Virus genome (UHGV): UHGV-1359728
Strand: one strand, 5' to 3'
Length of the DNA stretch: 14,383 nt
DNA from: a virus
Part shown: in pieces, positions 6,746 to 8,760 of the stretch
Layout of the letters: each line of letters opens with the position of its first letter
Position numbering within the stretch: the first letter of the stretch is position 1
The notes under the pieces: model-generated
What the model saw: only the letters and a program-made list of their open reading frames with translations
Databases searched by the model: none
Told to the model about the DNA's origin: nothing
Position numbers and translations under genes: made by a program

Positions 6746-7396
6746 ATGAATACACAACTGATGGGTGAGCGTATTCGCGCTCGCAGAAAAGAACTCAAGA
6801 TTAGGCAGGCTGCCCTTGGCAAGATGGTTGGCGTGTCTAATGTTGCTATTTCCCAATGGGAGCGATCTGAAACTGAGCCCAATGGCGAAAACCTATTGGC
6901 CTTAGCCAAGGCTTTGCAGTGCTCCCCTGATTACCTGTTGAAAGGAGAGGATAGTCTTTCAAACATTGCCTATCACAGCAGGCATGATCCAAGAGGTTCG
7001 TATCCTCTAATTAGTTGGGTAAGCGCAGGATGTTGGATGGAAGCTGTAGAGCCATATCATAGGCGTGCAATAGATAACTGGTACGACACAACGGTAGATT
7101 GTTCTGAAGACTCTTTTTGGCTCGACGTTAAAGGCGATTCAATGACTGCCCCGGCAGGACTGAGTATTCCTGAGGGGATGATTATTCTCGTCGACCCAGA
7201 AGTCGAACCACGTAATGGAAAGTTGGTAGTCGCCAAACTTGAAGGAGAAAACGAGGCGACATTCAAAAAGTTAGTTATTGATGCCGGTAGAAAATTCCTG
7301 AAACCACTCAATCCACAATACCCAATGATTGAAATCAATGGGAACTGTAAAATCATTGGCGTTGTCGTTGATGCCAAGCTAGCAAACCTTCCTTAA
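6746..7396 (+). CDS. c2: Prophage repressor, P22 C2-type (HTH plus S24 LexA-like autopeptidase domain)
   Basis: 216-aa ORF MNTQLMGERIRARRKELKIRQAALGKMVGVSNVAISQWERSE... with an N-terminal HTH, an Ala-Gly cleavage site (SAGCW) and the GDSM/K catalytic motifs. Very close to the P22 C2 sequence as I recall it. Confidence 0.93.
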   Translation: MNTQLMGERIRARRKELKIRQAALGKMVGVSNVAISQWERSETEPNGENLLALAKALQCSPDYLLKGEDSLSNIAYHSRHDPRGSYPLISWVSAGCWMEAVEPYHRRAIDNWYDTTVDCSEDSFWLDVKGDSMTAPAGLSIPEGMIILVDPEVEPRNGKLVVAKLEGENEATFKKLVIDAGRKFLKPLNPQYPMIEINGNCKIIGVVVDAKLANLP

Positions 7397-7420
7397 GGGG
7401 CTTTCGCCCCTTTTTTATTT
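7395..7420 (+). terminator. Rho-independent terminator after the repressor gene
   Basis: Stem AAGGGGC/GCCCCTT with loop TTTC, followed by TTTTTTATTT; it overlaps the c2 stop codon. Confidence 0.65.
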
Positions 7421-7460: not shown

Positions 7461-7515
7461 AATTAAGTTTTCTTCAAAATGCACTTGACCAATAAATTAA
7501 GAAGTCTTAAATTTA
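7461..7515 (+). promoter_or_regulatory. OL operators and PL promoter
   Basis: Operator-like 18-mers at 7461-7478 and 7495-7512 (AATTAAG....CTTAAAT). PL reads as -35 TTGACC (7485-7490) and -10 TAAATT (7508-7513) with a 17-bp spacer, overlapping the operator. Confidence 0.55.
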
Positions 7516-7558: not shown

Positions 7559-7600
7559 GGCTCTTTAACATCGACGGACTCTCAACCTAACCGTTGAGAC
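7559..7600 (+). promoter_or_regulatory. nutL site (boxA plus boxB)
   Basis: boxA GCTCTTTAACA at 7560-7570. The boxB hairpin TCTCAACCTAACCGTTGAGA at 7580-7599 has a 7-bp stem and a loop related to the nutR boxB (CTAACCG core). Confidence 0.6.
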
Positions 7601-7709
7601 CAGAACTTGAGTGGTTTTGGGGATGGCGCGAATTGCAGCTGCAAGACAGCGATCGAGAAGATAAGCACCTCGACGCGTCATGCGCCAAAGCCACTTAAAG
7701 GAGACCATC

Positions 7710-8015
7710 ATGGTAACCATTGTCTGGAAAGAATCCAAAGGTACGGCAAAAAGCCGCTACAAAGCTCGCAGAGCAGAACTTATTGCCGAGCGACGCAGTA
7801 ATGAAGCACTGGCGCGAAAAATTGCGCTAAAGCTCTCTGGTTGCGTCAGAGCAGACAAAGCAGCATCGCTAGGAAGCCTTTGCTGCAAGAAGAAAGAAGA
7901 AGTCGTTCGAAAAAATAGAAGTATTTATTACAAAGATTCAAACCCATTAGGAAACAAAATACATGCAGTCCAAAAAATAAAATTGTACAGTAAACTACCG
8001 TACGGTGCTTATTGA
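7710..8015 (+). CDS. N: N-type transcription antiterminator (phage-21-like arginine-rich motif)
   Basis: From the ATG at 7710 (AGGAG 8 nt upstream) the protein starts MVTIVWKESKGTAKSRYKARRAELIAERR..., containing the phage 21 N arginine-rich peptide as I recall it. The C-terminus has the QKIKL motif. The track's upstream extension from 7680 overlaps nutL. Confidence 0.85.
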   Translation: MVTIVWKESKGTAKSRYKARRAELIAERRSNEALARKIALKLSGCVRADKAASLGSLCCKKKEEVVRKNRSIYYKDSNPLGNKIHAVQKIKLYSKLPYGAY

Positions 8016-8017
8016 GT

Positions 8018-8356
8018 ATGCTTATGGTGAAAAAGACTATTTATGTTAATCCTGACCGCGGACAAAACAGAAAAGTATCTGATAGAGGTCTTACATCTCG
8101 AGACAGGAGGAGAATAGCGAGATGGGAAAAAAGGATAGCATATGCATTAAAAAACGGTGTAACACCTGGATTTAATGCTATAGATGATGGCCCTGAATAT
8201 AAGATTAATGAAGACCCAATGGACAAAGTTGACAAAGCATTAGCAACACCATTTCCTCGCGATGTCGAAAAAATTGAAGATGAAAAATATGAGGATGTAA
8301 TGCACAGAGTTGTTAATCACGCTCACCAACGAAATCCAAATAAAAAATGGTCATAG
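8018..8356 (+). CDS. Hypothetical protein (about 112 aa), AT-rich gene between N and the tL1-like terminator
   Basis: Uninterrupted ORF in markedly AT-rich DNA. The N-terminal half is basic (RGQNRKVSDRGLTSRDRRRIARWEKR) and the C-terminal half acidic (EDPMDKVDK...EKIEDEKYED). The start is ambiguous (TTG 8012, ATG 8018 or ATG 8024) and the Shine-Dalgarno is weak. A terminator follows immediately. Confidence 0.55.
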   Translation: MLMVKKTIYVNPDRGQNRKVSDRGLTSRDRRRIARWEKRIAYALKNGVTPGFNAIDDGPEYKINEDPMDKVDKALATPFPRDVEKIEDEKYEDVMHRVVNHAHQRNPNKKWS

Positions 8357-8380
8357 CCCACTTCGGTGGGTTTTTTATTG
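8355..8380 (+). terminator. Rho-independent terminator (tL1-like)
   Basis: Stem CCCAC/GTGGG with a TTCG tetraloop (8357-8370), followed by TTTTTTATT. Confidence 0.7.
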
Positions 8381-8489
8381 TCTGAACAAACCTAATTTAC
8401 TACCGCAAGCCACGCAGTGAAATGGGTGTGACTTGTGTTGGTCGCCAGAAAATGAAATTAGGCAGCAAACCACTTATTTGAGGTGATAT

Positions 8490-8576
8490 ATGGAAGAAGA
8501 ATTTGAAGAGTTCGAAGAGCATCCTCAGGATGTGATGGAACAATACCAGGACTATCCGTATGACTACGACTATTGA
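8490..8576 (+). CDS. Candidate highly acidic, aromatic-rich micro-protein (28 aa)
   Basis: ATG at 8490 follows GAGGTGA. Sequence MEEEFEEFEEHPQDVMEQYQDYPYDYDY. The stop overlaps the start of the next gene by 17 nt. Not in the ORF track (under 60 aa). Confidence 0.3.
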   Translation: MEEEFEEFEEHPQDVMEQYQDYPYDYDY

Positions 8577-8760
8577 TAAAAATCAATGGTGTGGACAATT
8601 CAAGCGATGCAATGGATGCAAGCTGCAATCGGAATGCATGGTTAAGCCTGAAGAAATGTTTCCTGTAATGGAAGATGGGAAATATGTCGATAAATGGGCA
8701 ATACGAACGACGGCAATGATTGCCAGAGAACTTGGTAAACAGAATAACAAGGCTGCCTGA
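8560..8760 (+). CDS. ral: Ral-like restriction-alleviation protein candidate (66 aa, Cys-rich)
   Basis: 66-aa ORF with a CX5CX2CX5C motif (CGQFKRCNGCKLQSEC). Its position after N and before cIII/kil, and its length, match λ ral. Identity is by synteny and recollection, not search. Confidence 0.5.
   Translation: MTTTIDKNQWCGQFKRCNGCKLQSECMVKPEEMFPVMEDGKYVDKWAIRTTAMIARELGKQNNKAA

Follow-up and report, generated by a model that had tools for sequence, protein, structure and literature searches.

We identify, with high confidence on the strength of sequence comparisons, the AT-rich open reading frame that follows N in this early region as nun, an allele of the HK022 gene for the transcription termination factor Nun, here residing in a lambdoid prophage whose N/nut antitermination is of the phage-21 type. 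The gene is already known, and it is among the best-characterised phage exclusion factors. The window (the whole stretch of DNA that was analysed, 14,383 nucleotides of the UHGV virus genome UHGV-1359728) is a lambdoid early region in which the PL operon is on the + strand and runs rightward, and its features around nun are collected in Table 1.

Table 1. Features of the early region around nun, with positions in the window and the evidence used for each assignment
Feature	Position	Strand	Basis
cI/C2-like repressor	6746-7396		
PL-like promoter of the early operon, TTGACC-17-TAAATT	7485-7513	+	Consensus scan
nutL, phage-21 type	7560-7599	+	Match to the phage 21 (OL657228) annotation
N antiterminator gene, hybrid	7710-8015	+	PHROG 271; alignments to phage 21 N
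HK022-like nun cassette (N 3' end, nun promoter sequence, nun, terminator)	7898-8373	+	blastn and alignment
PNun promoter sequence, within the N coding sequence	7963-7991	+	Transferred by alignment from O276 (MH547045)
nun, transcription arrest/termination factor	8024-8356	+	PDB, 1HJI and PHROG 5632 matches; Nun annotation in mEp235 and mEpX1
Predicted intrinsic terminator after nun (7-bp G+C-rich stem, UUCG loop, T-run)	8355-8380	+	Terminator scan, fold
Orphan 3' end of a phage-21-type N, codons 70-99, TNLIYYRKPRSEMGVTCVGRQKMKLGSKPLI and stop	8386-8481	+	Frame-3 translation; alignment to phage 21 N

Identity of the open reading frame

The frame is open on the + strand from TTG 8012, ATG 8018 or ATG 8024 to a stop codon at 8354-8356. 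Translation from ATG 8018 yields 112 amino acids, in agreement with the first-pass annotation of the window, which had placed a frame of about this length between the N stop codon and a terminator; the start annotated in HK022 corresponds to ATG 8024 (110 codons).

In a sequence search against all PDB chains, the product was identical to HK022 Nun (UniProt P18683) at 108 of 109 residues (6ALG chain N, E 2.5e-71), a chain entitled 'Transcription termination factor nun' in the solved complex of Nun with RNA polymerase (RNAP). All 26 of the 26 residues compared were also identical to the Nun peptide in 1HJI chain B, which was solved by NMR together with lambda boxB. Likewise, PHROG 5632, 'Nun-like transcription termination factor', matched positions 1-112 of 112 (E 4.5e-71). 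The arginine-rich motif (ARM, residues 20-44), which binds lambda boxB in HK022 Nun, is fully conserved according to the comparison with 1HJI chain B, and the same binding is predicted here. In the C-terminal segment that interacts with RNAP, H93, H98, H100, K106, K107 and the aromatic W108 are all kept (...MHRVVNHAHQRNPNKKWS), and every one of the residues that have been mutated in functional studies (H93, R94, N97, H98, H100, R102, K106, K107, and W108) is present, the list of residues implicated in arrest being taken from PMC5386594. The sole difference from HK022 Nun is S11R, which lies N-terminal to the ARM and is common to mEp235 and PA28. At the codon level, the gene differs from that of HK022 by eight synonymous changes and one non-synonymous change, and from the PA28 allele by 13 synonymous and seven non-synonymous changes.

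The product was identified solely by PHROGs and the PDB sequence search. Profile scans of it against Pfam, NCBIfam and PADLOC gave no match, as these libraries hold no Nun model, and for this reason nun carries the label 'hypothetical protein' in the listed RefSeq E. coli records (drawn from the ~220 with the gene; e.g., NZ_CP093068), one record excepted, and the first-pass annotation recognised no family. The latter had gone on to propose the frame as the best candidate in the window for an undescribed function, in other words a gene of an undescribed family that might serve anti-restriction, host takeover or a novel form of exclusion. The silence of the three profile libraries and the RefSeq label would fit such a gene, but the product is nearly identical to a protein whose structures are solved and whose genetics and biochemistry have been studied for decades, which refutes this reading, and we leave it next to no probability; HK022 Nun is already characterised, and its structure on RNAP is solved (PMC5386594). 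The class that had been guessed, a prophage-borne exclusion gene, does match HK022 Nun. Also correct in part was the description of the protein as charge-bipolar: the first 55 residues carry a net charge of +8 and are basic as described, but the acidic part, described as C-terminal, is confined to the middle of the protein, the remainder having a net charge of -2 and the last 20 residues, at the basic extreme C-terminus, one of +3.

The HK022-like cassette and the hybrid N gene

The PL-like promoter occupies the place that pL/OL has in the aligned phage 21 record. The nutL site consists of boxA GCTCTTTA at 7560-7567 and a boxB hairpin TCTCAACCTAACCGTTGAGA at 7580-7599, and agrees letter for letter with the boxA-L and nutL stem-loop in the phage 21 annotation (OL657228). 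The same boxA is present at nutR, where boxB-R is TCACCTCTAACCGGGTGA, and neither nut site differs from its phage 21 counterpart. A search of the whole window for lambda-type boxB, with up to two mismatches allowed, gave zero matches, and a scan of the whole window at the Rfam gathering thresholds returned no RNA family.

The N product matches PHROG 271 (E 1e-31), with a score of 18.1 bits to Pfam N_peptide that is under the 27.9-bit cut-off. Its residues 1-57 are those of phage 21 N, and the similarity runs on to about codon 66. By contrast, the last ~39 codons of the gene (7898-8015) come from the HK022-like cassette and are diverged from, yet alignable with, the C-terminus of phage 21 N. 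The cassette is 96.8% identical to HK022/O276 DNA (blastn, query 7880-8420), and the HK022-like block opens 118 bp before the N stop codon rather than at nun. In a four-way alignment, phage 21 N matches the window to about 7897-7915 and resumes at about 8386, so that the block from ~7898 to 8385 is an insertion inside N relative to phage 21. This inserted block starts with a diverged homologous 3' end of N (...EEVVRKNRSIYYKDSNPLGNKIHAVQKIKLYSKLPYGAY in the window versus ...EEVERKQNRIYYSKPRSEMGVTCVGRQKIKLGSKPLI in phage 21).

The window therefore holds two copies of the 3' end of N, a diverged AT-rich one that is in use and the original one, displaced, and the two share ~50% nucleotide identity. 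The displaced copy has no start codon, is preceded by an in-frame TGA, and is located 3' of the nun terminator. Judging from these alignments, the cassette swaps out the 3' end of N and leaves the original behind, and the N protein is a hybrid because the insertion brings in a diverged 3' end while the original one remains beyond the nun terminator. The frame had been rightly placed when it was described as wedged between N and its terminator, but this description did not capture that the cassette replaces the end of N and displaces the original.

The composition of the region sets it apart. GC content over the cassette (7898-8380) is 36.0%, compared with a window mean of 45.6% (z = -2.9); just 0.3% of windows of equal length reach a value as low, and the lowest-GC stretch of the window is the region holding the nun ORF, nun itself having a GC content of 37.2% and a GC3 of 25%. 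Computation hence bore out the conspicuous AT-richness reported in the first-pass annotation, and the horizontal acquisition that it had suggested fits with both the low GC content and the insertion relative to phage 21.

It might be argued that nun goes unexpressed, as an inert passenger or a decaying remnant of an earlier recombination. The region is indeed a patchwork, with an orphan fragment of N adjoining nun, and the lineage of PA28 and the Stx1a-converting phages combines a degraded terminator stem with a 1-bp deletion that makes N continue into nun. On the other hand, the window, HK022, mEp235 and PA28 all have an intact ORF, and ~219 copies in E. coli genomes are near full length as judged by coverage. 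Further, the excess of synonymous changes, the full conservation of the functional residues, and a promoter sequence that equals the one annotated in HK022/O276 are all difficult to reconcile with decay, and we regard it as very improbable that nun is inert.

Tandem duplication was considered as a source of nun. Despite the adjacent position of the two genes, a BLASTP comparison of Nun with the N of the window produced no alignment, and the notion of Nun as a detectable duplicate of N was rejected for want of sequence support.

Separately, an extremely acidic ORF of 28 codons (MEEEFEEFEEHPQDVMEQYQDYPYDYDY) was observed at 8490-8576, between the N remnant and ral (8560-8760), the start of which it overlaps. 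Its DNA is also found in phage 21, and the ORF is unannotated both in the phage 21 record and in RefSeq.

Expression and the proposed mechanism of exclusion

The putative PNun is composed of a -35 hexamer ATGCAG (7963-7968) and a -10 hexamer TACAGT (7986-7991), and both the hexamers and the spacer are identical to those in HK022/O276. The O276 record, which covers the HK022 immunity region, marks 'nun gene promoter' hexamers 55 and 32 bp 5' of its nun start. A generic sigma-70 promoter scan did not pick up PNun, whose hexamers are weak and far from consensus, and the position was therefore transferred from the O276 annotation; the assignment draws on this GenBank annotation and on the title of King et al. 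(2000). That title, as listed in PMC6814406, speaks of HK022 nun promoters giving constitutive expression in a repressed prophage, and an estimate of ~100 nM Nun in lysogens is given in PMC5386594 with reference to King et al. (2000). Since the cassette carries the sequence that the O276 record marks as the nun promoter, expression of nun would be expected in the repressed prophage, independently of PL. In the first-pass annotation, nun was expected to be transcribed from PL even without antitermination. This is compatible with the sequence, but as a model it is incomplete, as it misses the putative PNun. PL is repressed in the lysogen, which is when Nun acts.

At its 3' end, the nun transcript is predicted to stop just beyond the gene at an intrinsic terminator, as the first-pass annotation had noted from a UUCG tetraloop. 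The hairpin AGCCCAC-TTCG-GTGGGTT (8355-8372) is followed by TTTTATT, and its centroid fold is a 7-bp stem with a UUCG loop (-10.3 kcal/mol), with a z-score against shuffled sequences of -1.17 that is not significant alone. The stem also shows a compensatory A:T to G:C change between the window and HK022 (CCCAC..GTGGG versus CCCGC..GCGGG). A terminator scan of the + strand between PL (7485-7513) and 8355 detected no other terminator-like site.

A second, strong hairpin with a T-run (AAGGGGC-TTTC-GCCCCTT, then TTTTATTT) is located at 7395-7412, at the repressor stop codon and just 5' of the PL region. This hairpin probably ends the repressor transcript, keeping transcription of the repressor gene off N and nun.

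HK022 Nun excludes phages with lambda-type nut sites and requires NusA, B, E and G to do so (PMC5386594, PMC4496710). It binds boxB of the lambda nut sites via its ARM, in competition with lambda N, and its C-terminal segment arrests the translocation of RNAP (PMC5386594), the arrested complex being freed by Mfd (PMC4496710, PMC4124055). From this established work on HK022 we infer how the gene might act in the present prophage. In the lysogen, nun would be transcribed from its own constitutive PNun, situated within the 3'-terminal part of the N frame, and the transcript would halt at the hairpin directly 3' of nun. On superinfection by a phage with nut sites of the lambda type, the Nun arginine-rich helix (residues 20-44) would bind the nascent boxB in place of lambda N, and the C-terminus (H93, H98, H100, K106, K107, and W108), together with the host Nus factors, would wedge into the RNAP elongation complex and block its translocation. 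Mfd would then release the arrested complex, so that early transcription of lambda ends prematurely and lambda is excluded. The boxB hairpins of the prophage itself are of the phage-21 type, and its own N-dependent development would be spared, while in its own lytic growth the N-modified polymerase coming from PL would read through the nun terminator.

Thus, because its own nut sites are of the phage-21 type and the window holds no lambda-type boxB, a phage-21-type N/nut pair and a Nun directed at lambda boxB would be compatible within one genome, and Nun should spare its own phage. Robert et al. are said to have found, in 1987, that the phage-21 nut is not a Nun target. Our literature search for the insensitivity of imm21 to Nun found no such statement.

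Distribution, origin and comparison with known systems

The nun coding sequence was found in 221 of 5,426 complete E. coli genomes (~4%), in all cases on the chromosome, with at least 80% query coverage in 219 of the 221. E. coli BR1220, an isolate from Canada goose faeces, harbours a prophage with 100% identity to the window. For an 801-bp stretch (7700-8500) that takes in N, nun and the orphan N end, 213 genomes reach a coverage of 80% or more. With 213 genomes covering the N-nun stretch and 219 covering nun, the N-nun layout prevails, and that of HK022, without N, is rare.

Such a context raises the question of whether Nun might do a different or additional job in N-dependent phages, such as tuning their own N-21 antitermination or the choice between lysis and lysogeny, or excluding other phages. 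In 213 of about 219 nun-bearing E. coli genomes, nun comes right after a phage-21-type N and has DNA in common with the 3' end of that gene, and the exclusion of lambda is the sole role known for Nun (PMC4496710, PMC4124055), which leaves room for another one. Moreover, boxB is dispensable for polymerase arrest by Nun in vitro, and Nun is toxic when overproduced (PMC4124055). However, the ARM is identical to the peptide that binds lambda boxB, the boxB of the window is that of phage 21 and none of the lambda type is present, no sequence feature indicates a new target, and nun mutants of HK022 grow and lysogenise normally (PMC4496710). A different or additional job is accordingly improbable, albeit less so than an inert gene, and exclusion of phages with lambda-type nut sites remains our preferred reading of nun in this prophage.

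In HK022/O276, the sequence 5' of nun is a start-less open fragment (...IEVVRKNRSIYCKDSNPLGNKIHAVQKIKLYSKLPYGAYW...) that corresponds to the same 3' end of N, with its stop codon changed from TGA to TGG. The presence of this relic, with the stop mutated, 5' of nun suggests that HK022 descends from an ancestor with the N-nun pair. The statement that HK022 has Nun where lambda has N would then describe a derived exception, in which Nun arose and spreads in N-dependent phages against other N/nut specificities, and HK022 lost N secondarily on adopting put RNA. We offer this broader scenario tentatively, as a possibility that we would sooner doubt than accept. In the O276/HK022 sequence, the relic occupies L004 1472-1633, and the annotated nun promoter hexamers (L004 1566-1594) are inside it.

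As a discovery lead nun carries little weight, given that several phage genomes already have annotations of the N-nun pair. A literature search combining mEp235, mEpX1 and Nun found no paper on the N-nun arrangement (older papers on HK022 being outside its reach). The significance of nun is rather that surveys of defence systems based on Pfam, NCBIfam and PADLOC will miss Nun, and that the usual context of nun, an N-dependent prophage of the phage-21 type and not the N-less HK022, bears on the evolution of the competition between Nun and N.

Among known proteins, the N of lambda and phage 21 resembles Nun in being small and basic, with an N-terminal arginine-rich helix that binds boxB and a C-terminal part that acts on RNAP, and in being encoded in the same neighbourhood, but the outcome is opposite, namely antitermination instead of arrest. 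The phage 434 protein gp48 (PHROG 12139, 'Nun C-terminal peptide-containing protein') is encoded directly 3' of N, and its last 14 residues (VNHAHQRNPNKKWS) are those of the Nun C-terminus; unlike Nun, it is 289 amino acids long, its N-terminal 270 residues are unrelated, and it is without the Nun ARM. The Nun C-terminal peptide may be a portable module.

The gp48 gene of phage 434 (OL657226, L008 677-1546) follows an N of the lambda type, and VNHAHQRNPNKKWS represents the RNAP-arresting C-terminus of Nun. A similar short DNA match was observed in Hafnia phage Pocitis76.

In a megablast search of phage genomes, mEp235, mEpX1, Kapi1 and PDP110P1 showed the same N, nun, terminator and orphan N 3' end at 97-99% identity. 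The pair is annotated as 'antitermination protein N' and 'transcription termination factor Nun' in mEp235 and mEpX1, and across the phages with the N-nun pair nun is labelled 'transcription termination factor Nun' or 'Nun-like'. Phages of the mEp235 type differ from the window by point changes only, such as D63E in mEp235. At 91.6% identity, PA28 and the Stx1a-converting phages are built in the same way, but their left junction is slightly shifted, their terminator stem is degraded, and a 1-bp deletion at the end of N frameshifts it across the nun start. The Nun variant of PA28 (L007 1317-1760) and the Stx1a phages has seven amino acid changes, including G21S and K42E in the region of the arginine-rich motif.

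Finally, HK022 shares with the window the promoter hexamers and the terminator type. However, HK022 has no N, and its nun is preceded by PL-putL and a relic of an N 3' end that lacks a start codon, whereas in the window nun follows a complete, functional-looking N of the phage-21 type that ends in the very sequence of the HK022 relic. The two also differ 3' of nun, where HK022 carries IS903 and the window carries the orphan N fragment and then ral.
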